A stretch of 38,640 nt of DNA from a virus (lineage: Duplodnaviria > Heunggongvirae > Uroviricota > Caudoviricetes). The position numbers were made by a program, and so were the translations under genes. The DNA lies in the IMG/VR virus record IMGVR_UViG_2671180892_000010, one strand, 5' to 3'. The notes under the pieces were generated by a model. It was given only the letters and a program-made list of their open reading frames with translations, made no database searches and was not told where the DNA came from. Shown here in pieces: positions 2,798-36,679 of the stretch (the first letter of the stretch is position 1; every line of letters starts with the position of its first letter).

Positions 2798-3397
2798 TCA
2801 GAACTTATAACCGACACCCACGATGAAACCGTCAGTGCGCCAGTCGCCACTGCCGGAGCCTTCATAAGCAATATCAATGGCCACGGATTCGGTCGGGTTA
2901 AACTGCACGCCAGCTCCCCACGCCAGAGACGTGTTGCTGTGGCGACCGTCATCACTTCCGGTCAGCACGTCGTGCGTTTTCCCCTTGTTGTCAGTTACGC
3001 GGAGATAATCCCCGGAGAAAGTCGACACACGGCTGTAAGCCACACCCGCCATCGCATACGCGCTGAACCATTCATTCACGCGCACAGACGGCCCCACCAT
3101 CACGCTGAACCAGCGGTTACGCACGGAATCTTCATGCCAGCGGGTATCGCTGTAACGGGTAAGCTGGCGATTCTTGTCTCCTGCATAGCTGAATGACGTC
3201 ACCAGCCCCAGTGTGTCCGTAAACTCATAACGGTATTTCACGTTAATCCCGTTAAGATCATCGCTGCCGGGAACGTTCGTCGAGGCATGAAGATACCCCG
3301 CGCTCAGCGTGGACTGATGTTCAGACGCCCATGCAGGCGCACCGGATACGGCCAGACAAATGGCTGCGGACAAAATTGCTGCACAAACTTTACGCAT
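2798..3397 (-). CDS. lom: Lom-like outer membrane protein (Ail/Lom family)
   Basis: 199 aa with signal peptide [24 protein letters not shown] and C-terminal ...VGVGYKF beta-barrel end; sits between J and stf as in lambda. Confidence 0.9.
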
Positions 3398-3421
3398 AAT
3401 TACCTCTCGCTTTTCTGCAAT

Positions 3422-3445
3422 AAAAAAGGCGTCATTCCTGACGCC
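3422..3445 (-). terminator. intrinsic terminator between J and lom
   Basis: Hairpin GGCGTCA-TTCC-TGACGCC with an A-run on the plus strand, giving a U-run on the minus-strand transcript, 20 nt after the J stop. Confidence 0.6.
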
Positions 3446-3467: not shown

Positions 3468-6400
3468 TCAACGAATACTGATGCCGGAAGCGGCTTTTTT
3501 GGTCACAATCACCGTACAGTCGGTGATATTGCCTGCCCCCTGATTGCCTTTCTGGAAAATCTTAAACTCCAGAGTGACGCTACCACCACCACTAGGCATA
3601 TCAATAACTGCACTGTAACTACCGGGAATGGCCCCTTTAGTTTCTCTGGATGCGATTAATACGCCGTTTTTGCGAACTTCAAAACCATAACCCGTGTATC
3701 GCGTGCCTCCTGGGTTATTTCCGCTCCCCGGATCGTCATACGCTATACCGTTAAAAATAATGGGCGGAATAATAATCTGGCGGTCAAAGTTATGATCATC
3801 GCTGATGGTGACTGTAACCGTACCGTTTGGTGTTTCCGTGTTACCCCACGTACCGACTTTTTTCGGGAAGGCTTTTGATACAGCTTTAACGAAATCCCCT
3901 CTGACCTGGGTCGCCTCCAGCATGCCCTTAATCGTACAGTTCTGGTTAATCGTGACATTGTTGAGCGTTCCTGAGTTCGCATTCACACTACCACTGATAT
4001 CCGCATTTTTAGCGGTCAGCTTTCCGTCTGATGTCAGGGAAAATACCGGAGGACTGCCACCGCTGGTAATGGTGGGGGCTGTCAGGCGCTTCAGGAACAC
4101 GTCGTTCATGAATATCTGGTTGCCCTGCGCCACAAACATCGGCGTTTCATTCCCGTTTGCCTGGTCAATAAACGCGATACGGTTAGCGGCAACCAGAAAC
4201 TGGCTCAGCTTGCCTTCCTCCGTGTCCTCCATGCTGAGGCCAATACCCGCGACATAATGTTTGCCGTCTTTGGTCTGCTCAATTTTGACGCCCCACATGG
4301 CATTCCATTTATCGTTAGCGTCCTTCCACTCTTTCGAAAACTCATCCAGTCTGCTGGCGTTATCCTCCGTCAGATCAACTTTTTCCAGCAGCTCTTTACC
4401 GAGATGGGATTCGGTTATCTGGCCTTTGAAAAAATCCAGGTAACCTTCCGCATCATCGCTCGCCCGACCGACGGCTTCCACGAATGCCGATTTGCCAACG
4501 GTGTTCACACTGCGAACGTAAAAATAATAATCATGGCCCGGTTTGATATTGATACTGGCGGCTATCCAGTACAGCGCCGTGCCAAGATAGCGGGCTGTGG
4601 TTTCAACCTGCCTGATATCCGTAATCCGCGTTTCCGAGAACCAGAACTCAAACTGTACCGTCGGATCATAAACCGCAAGATGCGGCGTGGCAGTTATCTG
4701 AAAATAGCCCGGCGTCAGCTCAATCCGCGACGGCGCTGCCGGGGCGGCAATCCGGAACGATACCGACGCCGGATCGCCCTGCTGTCCCCACACATTTACC
4801 GCCCGGACCGTCAGCGTGTAACGCCCCAGCGCCAGTTGCCTGAAGCGGTATGTGGTTTCCGTCGTCCGGGCCGTGCTGACCAGCCGCTCACTGCCGTCGT
4901 CCGCTGTTACGGTCAGACGGAGCAGGAAGCTCACCCCCTTCACCACCTTCGGCGTGTCCCAGCGCGCCAGCACCTGATATTCCCCGCTGTCTGCGGTGAC
5001 TTCGGCAGTCAGGTGCTGCACCGCTGGCGGTGTGACACCATTCACCGTGCCGCTCTGGTCGCCGTCAAAGTGCGCCCCGTTATCCACGATGGCCTCTTTT
5101 TCCGGTACATGCTGCACGGCGGTGATGGCATACGTGCCGTCATCGTTCTCACGAATACTCACGCAGCGGAACAGGCGCTGGCGCAGCGTCGGCAGCTTCA
5201 GCCCCCATACGCTGTATCCGGCAACGCCGTCAGGAACACGGCTCACTTTCACCTTCACGCCGTCGGTGACGGACTGGACCTCCACGCTGACCGGACTCCC
5301 CTGCCCGTCAACCAGGCTTATCAGCGTGGTACCGGAAGATGGCAGCGTGATTTCACGGTCGAGCGTCAGCGTCCGGGTCTGGCTGTTCACCGCCAGCACG
5401 CGCCCGCCGGTGCTGATACCGGCATAGTCATCATCGCAGATTTCAATGACATCGCCCGGTACATGGCGAAGCCCTTCAGCACCCACGCTGAAGTCCACGG
5501 TCTGCGTTTCCAGCAGCTCCGTTTTAATCAGCCACAGCCCGGCTCGGTGTGCCTGCCCCCGGCTGGTACAGCCAAAGGCATCCATCTTCGTGACGTTACG
5601 ACCGTAACGGGCAATGGCCTGCGAGTCCTCCACAAGCTCTGTTGCCGTCTCCCAGCCGTTATCCGGGTCAATCCAGTTCACCTCAACGGCATTATGGCGG
5701 TCTTTCAGGGCGCTGAAGCTGTAGCGGAACGGCGCGCCATCATCCGGCATCACCACATTACTGCGGTTATAGGTCCACACCTTATCCGACGGTCGGTCCT
5801 GCACGAACGTCAGCGTCTGCCCGTTCCATACCGGCATACAGCGCATCGCCGAGCAGAAATCACTGAGCACATCNNNNNNNNNNNNNNNNNNNNNNNNNNN
5901 NCTGGCCGATGACATACAGCGCCCATTTGTCCACATCCGCCGCACCAAGACGTTTCCCCATGCCGTAGCGTGGATGGGTCAGCATATCCCACAGACACCA
6001 GGCCATGTTGTTGCTGTATGCCGGTTTAAACGTTCCGTCCCAGATACCGCTGTATTGCCGCGTCTGCGGGTTATAATTCGACGGCACCTGCAGAATACGC
6101 CCGCGAAGATGATAATTACGGCTCACCTGCTGGCTGCCGAACTGTTCCGAGTCCACCTGCACGCCGACCAGTGCCGTGTTCGGGTAGCACTGTTTCACAT
6201 CGATGATTTCGGTGTATGACGACCAGAGCGTTTTGTTCTGCAGCTGGTCTGTGGTGCTGTCCGGTGTCATCCTGCGCATCCGGATATTGAACGGTCGCGG
6301 CGGCAGGTTATCCACCACCACCGAGGCCAGATACTGCGACGTGGTTTTGCCCTTAATGGTGATGTCTTTTTCTGTCACCCAGCCACCGTTACGTTGTATC

Positions 6401-9210: not shown

Positions 9211-12200
9211 TACCGATATGCTCCACTTAACCGACCACCATCACGGGCCTGCTGTTGCATAAAGTCCGCTGCCGCTTTTTTCCCAAGGTCATAAACCACC
9301 TTCAGGGCAGCCGGACCTATCTGCCCGTTCGTGCCATCGTTATTGATCTCGATGTTGTACTGCGGGGCAAACATCGCCATACCTGAACCACCAATATCCG
9401 CCACAACCCCCAGCTTACCGTCAGCACCACGACGCAGTGGCAGAATGGCTTCAGGTCCAGCTTCCCCCATCACACCCGCGCCTTTTGCAAAAGCAAAAAA
9501 CGTCGGACGGTTAACCACCGTGCCACTGTAACGACTCAAATCAGCAGACTGATAAATCCCCCCATTGGCATTCAGGGAAAGGCTGCTGAGATCAAATCCC
9601 AGTACACTGCCAATCCCTTTTATCGATTTCATCATGGTTGCCTGCGCCAGGATTTTCGCCATATCTGACAGCACCGAAGAGGTGAAGGATTTGAAGTTGA
9701 GTTTGCCGGTAGTGACAAAAGTTGCCAGGCCATTTCCCATGTTGCTGAAGGCTGATGAGAACACCTGTTCTGCTGTTCCTGCCGTATTGTCTGCATCCAC
9801 GGTAAAATCCTGAAATGCACGCAGGACTCCGTTTTTCCAGTTACCCTGCACAACTTCAAGCTGTTGCCAGTAACGGCGATTCTCATTCAGTTGTCGGTTC
9901 AGGCTCTCCGTCAGCGCCTGCTCGGCCTTTCTGTAGTCATCCGTGTTATATGTCCCTTTCTGCTCACTATCCCGCCTCAACTGCTCCAGCTGTTGCTGGT
10001 ATTTCTGGCGAAGACTCAGTTGTACCTGATATCGCTGCCGCTGCTGATCACCCATACCCACCGTGGCGATATCCAGGTCATGTTGCTGACGCTGAGCGCG
10101 CTCTTCTTCAGCCAGTTGACTGGTCAGCTGAATTGTTTTTTTCTTCAGATCGTTGAGTGCCGTTTGTTTCTGAAGCTCCTGCTGTTTTACATCCAGCAGC
10201 GTCAGTGCCTGAATCAGTTCATCTTTACGGGCCAGCACACTCTTTTCATCTGCCGTCAGTTTTTTCCCGTCCAGATCGCTGATGCGCTGCTGCAGAGCCA
10301 GAAGCTGTTTATGCGCTTCTGTCATCTTTTCAGTGGCAATGCCTGCTGACTGTCTTGCAGCAGCAATCTGTCCTTCCACCTGTGCCTGTTGCTGACTGTA
10401 CTGCAGCAATAACCGGGTGGCCTCATCATTACGGGTTTCGCGTGTTTTTTTCTTACCGGATGCCAGGGCTTTCTCGTAACGTTCATTTTCACGTTGTATC
10501 GCCGCATCCCTGACAGCCTGGTCGGCGTACTGCATGGCATTAATACGCGCAATTTCACGCTGATGTCGTGCTGCTTCCGTTTCATTCATCCGGTTCAGTG
10601 CAGCATTTTCAGCATTACGTCGTTTCTGTTGCTCCTGATAATTCCGCTCTGCCTGCTCTTTTGCATCCTGCAAATCCTTCTGGCGTTTTTTCTCCTGAAG
10701 ATCGTTAAGACGCTGCTGATCGTATTCAACCTGAGAAGATGATGCCGTCCAGGGGAGTCTTTTCGCCCGCGACACTTTCTCCTGTAAAGCGGTAATCTGT
10801 TCATCCAGCGAGTCTTCACGACCAATATTCATGGCCGCATCCCAGAAACGACTCCACAAATCAGACAGATACTTCAGCGTACTGCCAAGCGCATTGAGGT
10901 TATTATCAATATCCGCAGTACGCCGACCGGTTTCCTCTGCCAGTGCAGACATGGCTATCCGTGCAGCATCACTGGACCGTCCCTGATCCCCAAGGACACG
11001 TATCTGCTCAAGCTGAGTGGCAGTAAGAAAATGCAGCTCATTGTCCAGAGCCTTCGCGGCATTTACAGGATCATCCTTCAGCCGCTTAAACTGATTTATG
11101 GTATCGCTGACCGACTGGCCAACCGATCGCTCCATCTGTGCGGCAGCTCTCGCCACCATACCGATATCGTTTCCACGAAATGCACCACTCCCCACCACCT
11201 GCGCCAACGCACCGGCTGCAGCATGTTGCGTGATACCATTCCCGGAAATAGCACGACTGAGCGTCCACAGCTGCCCGGCAGTGACTCCGGCATAATGCCC
11301 CGTCAGCGACAACTGGCGGTTAAATTCTTCCCCCTCCTTCTGACCGTCATACCAGGCTTTACCCAGACCATAGACGGCCGCGGCAATACCGCCAATAACC
11401 CCGCCAAGCATCATGCCTTTCGGTGACATCAGTGTGTCTATCCATCCGGCACGGTTAGCCAGCGTTATCCCGGATCCCCTCAGCGCCCCTAAATTGCCGC
11501 GGGCCAGTTCACCTATCAGAACGCCTATCTCCTGGCGGGCTGCTGCACTTTTCAGACCCAGCGAATGCGTGGCTTTTCCTGCCTGCTCCATTTTGCGGAT
11601 ATACACTTCTGCAGCACTGCTTACCCCCAGCTGGGCTGCCTTGGCACGAAGCAACTCAGAAGATGAAAGATTCTGGCGGGTTGCCTGCTCTTTAAGCTGA
11701 CGGATAAACGCCACTTTCTGTCGGGTAGCCTCTTCCTCAGCCTGTGTAAGAACACGGGTTTTCGCAGTAACCTCAGAAATCAGCGCCAGATAATCCTGCT
11801 GACCAATCCCGCCACTGTTTCTGGCCTGTCGGATCTGCTGCTGAATACGCTGTAATTCCTGCAGCCCCGCACTGGCCTGTTTCACACTGTCAATCTGACG
11901 ATAAAACGCAGCAGCCGCTTTATCCTGAGCCTCCGCCAGAGCCATGGCCTGCGCCTGTTCCTCGCGCATTTTCTGGCTCAGCGCCTCCATGCGCTGGCGG
12001 GTTTTCTCCACCTCGCGGGCCATGCGTTCATGAGCCTGTGCGTTCTTCTCCACCGTCTGCGCATGGACGGATGCGGCTGTTGCAGCCGAAGAAGCCGCCT
12101 GCGTTGTCTGCCGGGCGGCCTGAGTCTGACGCTCCATAAAACGCTGCATACGGGCAGAAGACCGTTCTGCATCGCTGGCTGCACCATTCAGAAGGTTTTT

Positions 12201-31457: not shown

Positions 31458-31690
31458 GCTGCACCTCCGAGATGCTTCATGTTTTTTCCGGAGCGAAAGG
31501 CTATAAGCGGCATACTGACGCGGTAATTACGGCCCAGCGGTTCACAAATCACCTTCTGACATTCACGGTCAACCAGGCTGACACGTAGAACATGCCCTGC
31601 TGGCGTGGTGTACCACTGCCCAACTGTGGGTGTTGATATTTTTTTACGCTGAAATAAACGGTAAATGTTGAGGAGCAACGGATTAAGCAT
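31454..31690 (-). CDS. hypothetical protein, 78 aa
   Basis: ORF with start and stop overlapping both neighbours; no recognisable motifs. Confidence 0.4.
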   Translation of the reverse strand: MLNPLLLNIYRLFQRKKISTPTVGQWYTTPAGHVLRVSLVDRECQKVICEPLGRNYRVSMPLIAFRSGKNMKHLGGAA

Positions 31691-32519
31691 GACGATGCCC
31701 TCCGCTGATATTCAGGAGACGGTGAATATGAAAATTAGCCTTATCCGCCAGACGAATACGTTCAGCTTGCAAGTTAAGAAGGGTTTCTACCAGAACCTGA
31801 TGTGCCTGCGGATCCGAAAGAGTTACCTTGCGCAGAGCACGTAGTGCAGTTGTTACATAACTGAGTTTATGTAAGTCTTCATCATTCAGACGAGTGAGGG
31901 CTGGGACAGTAGCCATGATGGCAGCCTCCTTGATCGGTGAAATACTTCCACCACCGGAAACGCCAATTTCGCTGGTGGTGAACTGAACGGGGTTGGCGTA
32001 ACCGGTGATCAAGGAAACCGGCGCATCTTTCGATGCCCCCGCCCAGCCCACCATAACTTTGATGTGAGCAAATGCGGACGATAAAAAAGACGCTGGCGCG
32101 TCATATATCGCCTTGATCAATTCCAGGACGCCAATCCCGGCACCCGCTTTATAAGGTGCCTGAACAGTGTAACGTCCCGGAATGGCAGAATCAATGTGCT
32201 GGTGGTCCTTCACACTCAACAAAATCACGCCTGAATTTCCACAAAGGACTAAAGCACTCATGCGGGTAGTCTTTGCGAAGATAGATAACGCGCTGTGTTT
32301 CTGGCTCCCAACGAATAACATGAACATAAAGTCCTCTTCCGTCACGAAACCAGCGGTTAAGTTCCTGCACAACTCGCCCCCCACAGTCAGGTAAAGTTCT
32401 CTGTGGTTACTTACAGCCAGGTGATTTGGTAATCTGCATTCATGCCGTAACAACAGGTGTTCAGCGACGCTGACCACCAGCTGTTGCGACAAACGGTTAT
32501 TTGCCGTTAAACTGTTCAT
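31683..32519 (-). CDS. hypothetical protein, 278 aa, unknown function
   Basis: ATGA overlap with the upstream gene; Gly-rich segments (VLCGNSGVILLS, GAGIGVLELI, GVSGGGSIS) but no Walker A motif or other recognised catalytic motif. Confidence 0.5.
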   Translation of the reverse strand: MNSLTANNRLSQQLVVSVAEHLLLRHECRLPNHLAVSNHRELYLTVGGELCRNLTAGFVTEEDFMFMLFVGSQKHSALSIFAKTTRMSALVLCGNSGVILLSVKDHQHIDSAIPGRYTVQAPYKAGAGIGVLELIKAIYDAPASFLSSAFAHIKVMVGWAGASKDAPVSLITGYANPVQFTTSEIGVSGGGSISPIKEAAIMATVPALTRLNDEDLHKLSYVTTALRALRKVTLSDPQAHQVLVETLLNLQAERIRLADKANFHIHRLLNISGGHRHA

Positions 32520-33311: not shown

Positions 33312-33401
33312 ACAATATGTACCTCCGGTATACATATTACATGATTGAGATGAACCTTCAAGATACTTGTACCTTATCGGTACAAAGGTTTTAATTTCTT
33401 T
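33312..33401. promoter_or_regulatory. cI-cro intergenic control region (candidate OR operators, PR and PRM)
   Basis: Inverted repeats AATATGTA-N9-TACATATT (33314..33338) and TTGTACC-N5-GGTACAA (33367..33385); minus-strand TTGAAG-N16-TAATAT candidate PR; cI ATG at 33402 has no Shine-Dalgarno sequence. Confidence 0.55.
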
Positions 33402-34076
33402 ATGAAAACAGTCCATGACATCCGGCGGTCTAACGCCAGAAAACTGAGAGATGGTGTTGGCGGGAATTCTTCCTTTGCCACCATGATTGATCGCGAGCCA
33501 ACCCAGACCAGCAGGTTTATGGGAGATGGTGCTACTAAAAATATCGGTGACAGCATGGCACGGCACATCGAAAAATGTTTCGACCTGCCTGTCGGATGGC
33601 TTGATCAAGAACACCAGACAACAAACATCACAAAAAAACCTGATGTTTCAATTACTAACAAACAAATAACGTTAGTCCCTGTCATATCATGGGTACAGGC
33701 CGGAGCATGGAAAGAAGTTGGCTATTCTGAGGTTGATTTGAGCACAGCAGAAACTTATCCCTGCCCTGTACCCTGTGGCGAAATGACTTATATCTTGCGG
33801 GTGATTGGTGATTCAATGATTGATGAGTACCGCCCGGGAGACATGATTTTTGTAGATCCTGAAGTCCCTGCCTGCCACGGTGACGACGTTATTGCATTGA
33901 TGCACGATACAGGCGAAACCACCTTTAAGCGGTTGATAGAAGATGGAACACAGCGTTACCTCAAAGCATTAAACCCAAACTGGCCTGAACCTTACATTAA
34001 GATCAACGGTAATTGCTCTATAATTGGCACAGTAATTTTCTCAGGAAAACCAAGAAGATACAAAATAAAGGCCTAA
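33402..34076 (+). CDS. cI: CI-like prophage repressor (helix-turn-helix plus S24 LexA-like peptidase domain)
   Basis: 224 aa; C-terminal ...LRVIGDSMIDEYRPGDMIFVDPEVP... autocleavage domain; divergent from cro. Confidence 0.88.
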   Translation: MKTVHDIRRSNARKLRDGVGGNSSFATMIDREPTQTSRFMGDGATKNIGDSMARHIEKCFDLPVGWLDQEHQTTNITKKPDVSITNKQITLVPVISWVQAGAWKEVGYSEVDLSTAETYPCPVPCGEMTYILRVIGDSMIDEYRPGDMIFVDPEVPACHGDDVIALMHDTGETTFKRLIEDGTQRYLKALNPNWPEPYIKINGNCSIIGTVIFSGKPRRYKIKA

Positions 34077-34087
34077 TCAATATTTAT

Positions 34088-34110
34088 AACCTGCTTCGGC
34101 AGGTTTTTTT
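34088..34110 (+). terminator. intrinsic terminator after cI
   Basis: AACCTGC-TTCG-GCAGGTT followed by TTTTTTT (UUCG tetraloop). Confidence 0.85.
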
Positions 34111-34114
34111 ATAC

Positions 34115-34147
34115 TTGACAATGTACCCTTGAGATACATAATGTATC
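34115..34147 (+). promoter_or_regulatory. PL-like promoter with overlapping palindromic operator
   Basis: TTGACA (34115..34120), 16-nt spacer, CATAAT (34137..34142); perfect 15-bp palindrome GATACATAATGTATC (34133..34147) overlaps the -10. Confidence 0.6.
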
Positions 34148-34577
34148 TAAAAGAAACATGTCACAGGCAAGATTAAACAAAATTTGGTTGTAACACGGCG
34201 TATGGCACATGCGTCGTTAGCGGTCTGGGGACGTTAAAGGGGACAATCCACTCCTTGCTCGGGCAAACAAACCAGGTAGCCGGAATGTGCAAGTCAATGA
34301 TGATGCTGATAAGACGCCTAACCAGCGTGGCGATCCGGTTTGACGCCTGGGAAGAGACCAGGGTGCAACGATGAGGGCATTTATGGAGCCGCGACAAAGT
34401 GTGGTGCCGTAACTGGCTAAGTGCTCTCAGCGTTGTGGTGAATGCGCAGGCTGATGCGCGAAAGACATTGCAGCTAATGCGGAAAAGAGCTGTTCGGCGG
34501 GGCAATTAAACGCCCGAGAGAGTCTGAAATAACCGCAAGCCGGAGATCAGCACCGGTCACCACAACAGCCACTGCTT

Positions 34578-34626
34578 TGGCGGTACCAGTTTGTACACTT
34601 GCTTCCGGCTGGTACCGCTCTTTTTA
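34578..34626 (+). terminator. candidate intrinsic terminator (tL-like) upstream of the early-left genes
   Basis: 10-bp stem GCGGTACCAG / CTGGTACCGC with a 19-nt loop, followed by TCTTTTT. Confidence 0.5.
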
Positions 34627-34762
34627 CAAAACAGAGAAGAGCATCACCGGACGACGGGCTCATAACCCAATCCATCCGGGCTGCTGCCACCGCAGGTGTT
34701 CTTCTCTGTTTTGTGGAGAAACCAACCGACCTTGCAGGGTCGATATGATGAGGAGCAGCAAA

Positions 34763-35125
34763 ATGGCTAGCGAACGCAGTACTGATGTGCAGGCATTTAT
34801 CGGGGAGCTGGACGGCGGCGTATTTGAAACCAAAATCGGCGCAGTTCTCAGTGAAGTCGCTTCAGGTGTGATGAACACGAAAACCAAAGGTAAGGTCTCA
34901 CTCAACCTGGAAATCGAACCATTTGATGAGAACCGTGTGAAAATCAAACACAAACTCTCATATGTTCGCCCGACTAACCGCGGGAAAATTTCCGAAGAAG
35001 ACACCACCGAAACGCCGATGTATGTCAATCGCGGTGGTCGCCTGACTATTCTGCAGGAAGACCAGGGACAATTACTGACTCTTGCCGGTGAACCTGACGG
35101 AAAACTCCGCGCAGCAGGTCATTAA
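34763..35125 (+). CDS. hypothetical early protein (size and synteny consistent with YfdP)
   Basis: 120 aa from the ATG at 34763 (MASERSTDVQAFIGELDGGVF...), AGGAG RBS; the track ORF from 34577 is an in-frame extension through the terminator. Confidence 0.55.
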   Translation: MASERSTDVQAFIGELDGGVFETKIGAVLSEVASGVMNTKTKGKVSLNLEIEPFDENRVKIKHKLSYVRPTNRGKISEEDTTETPMYVNRGGRLTILQEDQGQLLTLAGEPDGKLRAAGH

Positions 35126-36142: not shown

Positions 36143-36679
36143 ATGTCATTTATTAAAACTTTTTCCGGGAAGCATTTTTATTATGACAAGATAAATAAAG
36201 ACAACATCGTTATTAACGATATCGCGGTTTCCCTTTCAAATATCTGTCGCTTTGCAGGACATCTTTCACACTTCTACAGCGTCGCCCAACATGCGGTGCT
36301 TTGCAGCCAACTGGTACCGCAGGAATTTGCTTTTGAAGCGTTAATGCATGATGCAACAGAAGCGTATTGCCAGGATATTCCCGCTCCACTGAAACGCCTT
36401 CTTCCTGACTATAAACGGATGGAAGAAAAAATAGACGCCGTAATCCGTGAGAAATACGGGTTACCCCCGGTTATGAGCACGCCCGTGAAATATGCCGATC
36501 TCATCATGCTGGCAACTGAACGCCGCGATCTCGGGCTTGATGATGGCTCTTTCTGGCCTGTACTGGAAGGTATCCCGGCAACAGATATGTTCAAAGTTAT
36601 TCCACTGGCACCGGGCCATGCCTATGGGATGTTTATGGAACGTTTTAACGAGTTATCGGAGTTACGCAAATGCGCATGA
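36143..36679 (+). CDS. yfdR: HD-domain 5'-deoxynucleotidase YfdR-like
   Basis: 178 aa from MSFIKTF...; HD motif region ...AGHLSHFYSVAQHAVLCSQ... ...LMHDATEAYCQDIPAPLK... Confidence 0.75.
   Translation: MSFIKTFSGKHFYYDKINKDNIVINDIAVSLSNICRFAGHLSHFYSVAQHAVLCSQLVPQEFAFEALMHDATEAYCQDIPAPLKRLLPDYKRMEEKIDAVIREKYGLPPVMSTPVKYADLIMLATERRDLGLDDGSFWPVLEGIPATDMFKVIPLAPGHAYGMFMERFNELSELRKCA

Follow-up and report, generated by a model that had tools for sequence, protein, structure and literature searches.

The stretch of DNA analysed here (the window) is the viral record IMGVR_UViG_2671180892_000010 of IMG/VR, 38,640 nucleotides of a lambdoid prophage of the SfV / mEp460 / cdtI type. Its early-left operon begins on the + strand at a PL-like promoter beside the repressor gene cI, and opens with a yfdP-like gene that is followed by yfdQ (DUF2303), yfdR, a gene for a DUF551 protein, xis and int. 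Between an intrinsic terminator and yfdP lies the inverted repeat that is the subject of this report. The repeat belongs to an element in which a closing helix of 21–24 bp encircles a three-way junction. The element directly follows the terminator and precedes the first gene by about 46 nt, and compensatory changes preserve its pairing in many temperate Enterobacterales phages. The length of the helix stays near 20 bp, or about two turns, and both its sequence and its interior are exchanged between lineages. Processing by RNase III of transcripts that read through from PL appears to be the most likely function of the repeat.

The inverted repeat and its fold

The two arms, ACAAAACAGAGAAG and CTTCTCTGTTTTGT, can be read directly in the sequence (Table 1). 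An initial annotation of the window, made from the sequence alone, had described a perfect 14-bp inverted repeat at this point; the repeat is indeed present, but it had been placed one base too far to the left, and the perfect pairing actually extends over 15 bp (34626-34640 with 34700-34714), leaving a spacer of 59 nt. The setting between terminator and yfdP-like start codon was as described there, and the spacer, which had been called GC-rich, has a G+C content of 62%. No second repeat with arms of at least 14 bp within 120 nt of each other occurs in the 38.6-kb window, and in 100 dinucleotide-preserving shuffles such repeats numbered 0.03 on average, any at all being present in only two. 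The repeat count also brought up a short low-complexity inverted repeat at window positions 5874-5901, made of several overlapping 10-12 bp arm pairs 3-8 nt apart; it was seen in that count only.

When G·U pairs are included, the helix grows to 21 bp in the consensus of the family (34625-34645 with 34695-34715) and to 24 bp in the fold of the single sequence (34621-34644 with 34696-34719), where it closes a three-way junction spanning 34621-34719. Folded as RNA, the 101 nt from 34620 to 34720 have a minimum free energy (MFE) of -46.7 kcal/mol (z = -6.96), which none of 200 shuffles equalled. The fold of the element is unchanged in 251 nt of context, where it stands beside the hairpin of the upstream terminator and a small downstream hairpin at 34727-34742. 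The layout of arm 1 of the junction is common to the E. coli, Klebsiella and L007 types, whereas arm 2 is a short hairpin of variable length. Rfam gave no match at the element, either at the gathering threshold on the whole window or at E <= 10 on 34000-34900, and a covariance model of the element found no further copy of it in the window.

Table 1. Positions of the repeat, of the parts of its predicted fold and of the surrounding features in the window
Feature	Position	Strand	Remarks
cI, Peptidase_S24 protein	33402-34076		
PL-like promoter	34115-34142	+	TTGACA, 16 nt, CATAAT; promoter scan 11/12
Operator-like palindromes ATGTACCCTTGAGATACAT and ATGTATCTAAAAGAAACAT	34121-34139, 34141-34159		overlap PL
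sRNA-17 homologue	34431..34624	+	E. coli K1 RS218, 193 nt; ends at terminator adjoining the element
Intrinsic terminator	34580..34625	+	stem GCGGTACCAG/CTGGTACCGC = 34580-34589 / 34609-34618; T-run 34620-34625
Inverted repeat arms	34626-34639; 34701-34714		ACAAAACAGAGAAG; CTTCTCTGTTTTGT; 61 nt between; read in sequence
Closing helix, 5' arm	34625..34645	+	perfect part 34626-34640; single-sequence fold reaches 34621, in terminator U-tract
Arm 1 of three-way junction	34647..34679	+	5-bp stem, 1x2 loop, GA/UC, 1x2 loop, GGG/CCC, 7-nt loop CUCAUAA
Anticodon stem-loop copy GGGCUCAUAACCC	34656..34668	+	with C34655, 14/14 identical to metY 28-41
Arm 2, short variable hairpin	34680..34695	+	CUGC CACC GCAG in window; 12 to about 45 nt in relatives
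Closing helix, 3' arm	34695..34715	+	perfect part 34700-34714; single-sequence fold reaches 34719
Conserved motif GUGGAGAAAC	34713..34722	+	at and just past 3' foot of stem; GUGGAG(A/U)AA across genera
Small G+C-rich hairpin	34727..34742	+	CGACC UUGCAG GGUCG; between stem and yfdP ribosome binding site; relatives also have a hairpin there
Shine–Dalgarno sequence	34750-34755	+	GAGGAG
yfdP-like open reading frame	34763-35125	+	first early-left gene

Conservation of the pairing in related prophages

Relatives of the element were collected in two ways. A BLAST search brought up 71 phage records that contain the hairpin region, from Escherichia, Shigella, Salmonella, Citrobacter, Klebsiella and Pantoea, and a pattern scan of viral contigs found at least 120 loci, with 72 distinct variants among the matches listed. 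As that scan was ascertained on the apical loop, a second sample was drawn without regard to the RNA, from homologues of yfdP with one genome taken per species. A covariance model built from the alignment of the element, applied to these loci with a cut-off of >60 bits, recognised it in about 30 of the 69 species-level yfdP loci, and in each of these the element ends about 46 nt 5' of the start codon. The genes that lie 3' of the element vary among relatives, and include yfdP, rdgC, yfdR, xis-int and a holin gene.

The sequence of the closing helix differs from one relative to another (ACAAAACAGAGAAGAGC, ACGCAACACACGAGAGC, ACACAAGACACAAGAGC, GCACAACAGAAAAGGGC, GGCCUG) with its complementarity kept, and RNAalifold returned the same structure, with 33 pairs of which 10 show compensatory changes. 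The long RNA stem that the initial annotation had envisaged, and for which it had proposed folding and covariation analysis in related prophages, is borne out by this analysis. Across 22 distinct trimmed sequences, the proportion of cells that pair is 96.0%, and it falls to 38-51% if the 3' partners are displaced by 1-3 columns; two-sided changes are found in nine pairs; and the covariation score of 0.206, compared with 0.116 in shuffles, was reached by none of 500 shuffles. G·U cells number 55 against 6 A·C cells, and this excess indicates that the structure under selection is that of RNA from the + strand, on which yfdP is read, and argues against both a DNA palindrome and an RNA of the minus strand. 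A coding role was considered for the element because an open reading frame (34577-35125) prolongs yfdP in the 5' direction right through it in the window, but the element occurs in lengths of 93, 94, 95, 96, 114 and 118 nt, and these variants, which do not differ by multiples of three, exclude coding.

The alternative that the palindrome acts as DNA, either as a pair of sites for a dimeric regulator, as the initial annotation had also suggested, or as a site of recombination or cruciform formation, is extremely improbable. The perfection of the 15-bp arms in the window would suit such a role, as would one locus of Serratia symbiotica (L196 2322-2435) in which a type I interior lies reversed relative to the frame and to yfdP, an arrangement that would be the expected outcome of recombination between inverted arms. 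Across the family, however, it is complementarity and not arm sequence that is conserved, with the strand asymmetry just described. In most relatives a 1x1 mismatch interrupts the helix 11 bp above its base, so that the perfect arms of the window are exceptional; the spacing of the arms ranges from 8 to 74 nt; and the CI operators of the phage have a different sequence. The suggestion of a regulator-binding pair of DNA sites is not supported; the interpretation of the initial annotation as a whole is partly supported.

A leader frame with exchangeable interiors

A shared order of features is found 5' of yfdP homologues: the T-run of a terminator, an ACA-rich arm, an interior, a UGU-rich arm, the motif GUGGAG(A/U)AA(C), a G+C-rich hairpin, a Shine–Dalgarno sequence and the ATG. 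In nearly all relatives the T-run, or in its place the 3' end of a tRNA, directly precedes the element. The same frame recurs in Yersinia, Serratia, Rahnella, Providencia, Xenorhabdus and Morganella with unrelated interiors, some of them almost empty, as in Yersinia similis (L180), where an 8-nt loop is all that is enclosed. The frame is older than its contents. Over 46 loci the outer helix measures 11-27 bp with a median of 20, and lies between 19 and 21 bp in 33 of the 46; the median is 21 in the 17 loci with interiors other than type I.

Two side observations concern the contents of the frame. An interior motif AGU(C/A)UAAAG(C)CC is common to prophages of Yersinia and Serratia (L159, L160, L163, L173, L179, L181, L197) and may represent a second apical RNA module. 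In the CPS-53 prophage of E. coli K-12 (L126 7400-7530, 5' of yfdP) the element has been lost, and imperfect direct repeats (CAGATTTTGACGGGT / CAGATTTTGATGCGT and similar) are found instead.

The apical module and initiator tRNA

The spacer proved to contain more than the initial annotation had noticed, namely a conserved three-way-junction RNA with a hairpin like that of initiator tRNA. In the window, CGGGCUCAUAACCC (34655-34668), checked against metY, is identical to positions 28-41 of that initiator-tRNA gene, and comprises three G-C pairs and the loop CUCAUAA; next to it comes AAUCC, which the tRNA has on the 3' side of its T loop and T stem. Local alignment of four types of the element with metY gave scores of 24-35, above all of 500 shuffles. 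The loop, as read from the sequence, has the YUNR or U-turn form, and it is nearly invariant together with the bulges of arm 1, whereas the stems covary. These likenesses suggest that an initiator-tRNA gene was the source of the apical module in the window.

The module also occurs free of the long stem. In Klebsiella phages it occupies the final place of a tRNA array in the leader of the late genes, set off by the same spacers of 5-6 nt as the tRNAs; the closing stem is here 5-6 bp and is followed by ACCA or GCCA, arm 1 is kept down to its bulges, and closing stem and arm 2 together amount to about 12 bp, like the acceptor/T limb of a tRNA. These late-leader arrays (L021 3916-4308; L049 6112-6344; L012, L019, L059, L068) hold tRNAs for Asn, Phe, Thr, Arg-UCU and Met/Ile2-CAU, and after the Klebsiella-type module there follow another conserved stretch and a terminator, and then lysis genes. 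One viral contig (L101), alone among about 125 loci, carries two copies of the module. The copy at 12006-12060 (+) and that at 3316-3433 (-) are divided between the PL leader, where the module sits within a long stem, and the late leader, where it lies between a Q-type antiterminator gene and a holin gene, has a short stem just after a terminator, and ends in GCCA. Apparent extra copies in L006, L048, L075 and L097 turned out to be coding starts and not elements. The acceptor-type stem ending in NCCA and the position in an array are absent from the copy in the window, being confined to the Klebsiella-type relatives and the late copy of L101. The module is portable and probably tRNA-derived. 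It is not a tRNA, since it is missed by ARAGORN, which found none in the window at default settings and made only inconsistent calls at lowered thresholds, and by the Rfam tRNA model RF00005, which matched neither the window copy nor the Klebsiella copy; the Klebsiella-type copy had no match to any other Rfam family either.

The occurrence of a free-standing module in tRNA arrays suggests that the stem serves to deliver a tRNA-like RNA. On an alternative reading the apical three-way junction would be the functional unit and the stem no more than its means of delivery; the junction would be cut out by RNase III, or in the arrays by RNase P with 3' trimming, and would act in trans through its anticodon-like arm. 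It might then lure anticodon nucleases of the VapC type as a decoy, bind to the initiation machinery, or work as an antisense RNA through kissing loops. Toxins of the VapC type cut tRNAfMet, which is the basis of the decoy idea. The 14 of 14 identities with the metY anticodon stem-loop and the adjoining AAUCC, the U-turn loop, the near-invariance of that loop and of the arm 1 bulges, the appearance of the module in PL and late leaders 5' of unrelated genes, and the Klebsiella copies standing in register in tRNA arrays with RCCA ends and an acceptor-like limb all speak for it. Set against these are the silence of both tRNA searches, variation at loop positions 37-38 in some relatives and the replacement of one loop altogether; moreover, the unrelated or near-empty interiors of other lineages mean that the frame needs no tRNA-like module. 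This reading, with its action in trans, is regarded as unlikely.

A complementary target for the loop region was sought in the window and in 123 loci, and no conserved one was found. The only notable match was GGTTATGAGC in yfdR (36468-36477, +), a perfect 10-nt complement of GCUCAUAACC in the apical hairpin; it encodes the residues PVMS, is not kept in other species that bear the element, and occurs even where K-12-type prophages lack the element, so it was judged coincidental. The match of CUCAU to AUGAG in start regions extends over 5 nt only and is short. The prophage small RNAs (sRNAs) AgvB/AsxR and Pas are different RNAs in different positions. A more specific proposal would be that of a portable initiator-tRNA-derived RNA, made by temperate Enterobacterales phages in lytic growth only, freed by RNase III in the PL leader or by tRNA-processing enzymes in the late arrays, and mimicking in trans the anticodon arm of tRNAfMet. 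In this full form the proposal is improbable; possible roles for such a mimic would be to neutralise anticodon nucleases that target tRNAfMet (VapC-type toxins) or to reprogramme translation initiation.

Organisation of the early-left leader

The 686-nt region between cI and yfdP is 100% identical to that of E. coli strain C7. Of 5426 complete E. coli genomes, 2839 match it in part and 794 over at least 80% of its length; among the RefSeq matches listed it bears no annotated feature. On the far side of cI lie a CII-like gene and an open reading frame of the Ash family. The two operator-like palindromes that overlap PL resemble the sites ATGTACCTCCGGTATACAT (33317-33335) and TGTACCTTATCGGTACA on the OR side (33317-33389), the operator consensus being roughly ATGTAYC-N5-7-GRTACAT. 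If transcription starts near 34149, as the position of PL implies, the early-left transcript has an untranslated leader of about 613 nt that contains the element. Neither an N-like open reading frame nor a boxA was found in this leader; matches to the nut/boxA pattern YGCTCTTWA occur at chance level, and that at 34616, CGCTCTTTT, is the 3' side of the terminator and is not kept in relatives.

The PL leader also contains a homologue of sRNA-17, a published RNA of E. coli K1; it was located in the window through the published primers for rapid amplification of cDNA ends (RACE), for the full-length RNA and for northern blots (Table S2 of PMC7719688), which fall here on the + strand. The element (34621-34719) is not part of sRNA-17 and is not described in that paper. 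Replacement of the sRNA-17 region by a cassette raised yfdP expression about 95-fold and also raised that of yfdR (PMC7719688), and transcripts of both genes were near-absent in the wild-type lysogen (Table 1 of the same paper). A prediction of pairing by RNAduplex between full-length sRNA-17 and the leader was uninformative, giving a duplex spread over the whole of both sequences. Because yfdP and yfdR lie in cis to sRNA-17, just past its terminator and the hairpin, their rise may reflect read-through or processing of the leader and not regulation in trans.

These expression data bear on the possibility that the element acts as a back-up terminator or attenuator, a further obstacle to transcription after the terminator of sRNA-17, which would silence xis and int in the lysogen. 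Such a barrier would agree with the near-absence of yfdP and yfdR transcripts and their rise after the replacement, with the constant position of the element 3' of a terminator, and with the U/G-rich 3' arm (UCUUCUCUGUUUUGU). The helix is followed, however, by GGAGAAAC and not by a U-run; a terminator scan of the + strand was empty over 34621-34719; branched interiors of 49-74 nt are atypical of intrinsic terminators; and late-leader copies have short stems. A barrier of this kind is very unlikely.

The lack of an N gene or boxA in the leader also raises the idea of an RNA for processive antitermination like the put RNAs of HK022, which would modify the RNA polymerase that transcribes it so that later terminators in the early-left and late operons are passed over, and which would likewise be a two-hairpin RNA near the start of an operon; in L101, each of two antiterminated operons carries a copy. 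Yet no sequence is shared with putL or putR, the element comes after and not before the first terminator, its interior is freely exchanged between lineages, and the late copy of L101 adjoins a Q-type antiterminator gene, which would make an RNA antiterminator redundant. It seems highly doubtful that the element acts in this way.

More weight attaches to the possibility that the element works as a structure in cis without any involvement of RNase III, by insulating the ribosome binding site of yfdP from the long structured leader, by forming a barrier to RNase E or Rho, or by using the GGAG at the stem foot to tune how the first gene is translated. The distance from stem end to start codon is constant at about 46 nt; GUGGAG(A/U)AA and the hairpin that follows it are conserved across genera; GGAGA at the stem foot is able to pair with the U-tract of the terminator; and the 613-nt untranslated leader would otherwise presumably be open to Rho. 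The translational control hairpin of the initial annotation is in keeping with the constant spacing, but the Shine–Dalgarno sequence and the ATG are unpaired in the fold with 251 nt of context, so there is no obvious sequestration. Furthermore, the apical module also occurs in contexts without the frame, and insulation alone predicts no helix length of about two turns. A role purely in cis, in translation or stability, would explain the fixed spacing and the conservation of GUGGAGAAAC; it is on balance unlikely, and about as credible as an action in trans.

Other parts of the leader and of the immunity region deserve brief mention. The segment 34195-34430 (+), found also at L004 2497-2741 and in L244 and L001, is a leader unit of about 240 nt that always ends in ...GCTAAGTGCTCTCAGCGTTGTGG, and is followed by a variable payload: sRNA-17 in the window, a different RNA in phage Ayreon, and a tRNA-Arg in further prophages of E. 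coli. It has one hairpin with a compensatory change (CCUGG/CCAGG versus CCUCG/CGAGG). Its candidacy as a structured antiterminator was rejected, its fold having a z of only -1.4 and its variants being too few for covariation; it may instead carry the promoter of the payload or serve as a processing leader. On the minus strand, in the PR-side immunity region, Rfam recognised a C4 antisense RNA at 31971-32058 (82 bits) and an isrK RNA at 32083-32159 (64 bits). Both lie inside a 278-aa open reading frame (31683-32519, -), residues 117-210 of whose product match the Pfam family Phage_ASH, so that either the stretch 31971-32159 encodes both RNA and protein or the call of an Ash-family reading frame overlies RNA genes.

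RNase III processing as the preferred reading

The reading favoured here, to which a probability of roughly 45% may be given, is that the early-left PL leader (+ strand) contains a conserved structured RNA with the repeat at its base, and that this RNA would be an RNase III substrate on read-through, the cleavage detaching the yfdP-int mRNA and freeing the apical RNA. It is the combination of a two-turn helix, conservation of pairing and not of sequence, exchangeable contents and likeness to the N leader of phage lambda that leads to RNase III being preferred. The catalytic valley of the enzyme holds about 22 bp of double-stranded RNA, and double cuts in intramolecular stems occur in vivo (PMC6212723). 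At 21 bp (consensus) or 24 bp (MFE), the helix of the window has about two turns, close to the ~20-22 bp expected of RNase III stems.

In outline, transcripts that pass the terminator during lytic growth would present the helix to the RNase III of the host, as in the lambda N leader. Cuts in both arms would then part the early-left mRNA (yfdP to int) from some 470 nt of structured leader, and the mRNA would gain a new 5' end beside GGAGAAAC and the small hairpin, which would be protective. The module at the tip would be set free by this cleavage, as a small RNA some 60-75 nt long.

Several observations weigh against this proposal. The length of the helix is only roughly constant (11-27 bp), and the cases of 19-21 bp are not independent, because many of them share ancestry. 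The stems of Klebsiella and late-leader copies, at 5-6 bp, are too short for RNase III, so that stem and apical module may serve different purposes. The element is situated 3' of a terminator, and neither an N gene nor boxA nor put, as devices for antitermination, was found. The mimicry of tRNA is imperfect: the relatives sampled through yfdP include the loops CUCAUUC, CUCAUUA and UUCAUAA, stems with two G-C pairs where the window has three, and one loop replaced. Finally, RNase III processing alone explains neither the fixed interval between stem and start codon nor the conservation of GUGGAGAAAC.

Whatever its mode of action, the element stands at the entry of an operon that ends in xis and int, and is thus placed to influence prophage excision and early lytic expression, and the hairpin module recurs in many other Enterobacterales prophages. 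If the repeat is an RNase III site, the paradigm of the lambda N leader would be extended to a large lambdoid group that has no N gene. The tRNA-like tip, which recurs in tRNA arrays and in two transcription units unrelated to each other, is a candidate for a tRNA mimic made by phages; if an action as a mimic in trans were true, an RNA-only factor of counter-defence or takeover would be hidden in leaders regarded as 'non-coding'.

Relation to known systems

The HK022 put RNAs are, like the element, cis-encoded two-hairpin RNAs in a lambdoid early leader of a phage without an N gene, but they lie 5' and not 3' of the terminator; the core motif of the element is absent from the HK022 immunity region, and putL and putR are, on reading, unrelated to it in sequence. 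In the RNAs C4 of P1/P7 and CI of P4 (RF01695), which are antisense RNAs cut from a leader by RNase P, a long stem with two hairpins is likewise found in the leader of a regulatory operon, and the Klebsiella-type relatives of the element share with them tRNA-like ends. The window copy differs in having no CCA-like 3' flank and no conserved complementary target in its operon. Identity with the C4 type was rejected: RF01695 found no match in 34000-34900 even at E <= 10, although the model finds the true C4 RNA on the opposite strand of the window at 31971-32058 (-). From initiator tRNA (metY/metZ) and from the tRNA genes borne by phages the element is set apart by having neither D arm nor T loop, and by a closing stem in the window of 21-24 bp rather than 7. 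It shares with sRNA-17 (PMC7719688) the same intergenic region of mEp460-like prophages, the terminator of that RNA adjoining the element, but the two are separate RNAs.

The RNase III stems of rRNA operons and of the early mRNA of phage T7 provide another parallel, since they too have a flanking helix of about two turns whose length and not sequence is kept, and whose contents are exchangeable. They differ in that the element encloses about 50-75 nt of RNA and is found in the leader of a phage mRNA and not in a stable-RNA operon.

The nearest counterpart is the hairpin of the lambda N leader, where processing by RNase III modulates expression of the first gene. Folded in the same way, the lambda leader forms a closing stem of 16-17 bp (GGCUUUGGGGUGUGUG / CACACACC.ACCAAAGCU) that encloses some 80 nt of branched interior; GGAGAA comes next, and then the first PL gene. 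Both structures therefore lie in an untranslated leader between PL and the first gene, and have one CA-rich and one GU-rich arm, a branched interior and a GGAGAA motif. There are also clear differences. The two share no sequence similarity, and the GU-rich arm is 5' in lambda and 3' in the element. In lambda GGAGAA is the Shine–Dalgarno sequence of N, whereas no start codon follows it in the element. The element comes after an intrinsic terminator, in a leader where a nut site and an N gene were not found; its interior is tRNA-like, and its cleavage is proposed by analogy. The core sequence of the element was not found in print in the literature searched. An RNase III-type leader hairpin in the PL operon of a lambdoid phage was known already; what is new is the family of elements with swappable interiors, and a tRNA-like module that doubles as a member of tRNA arrays.

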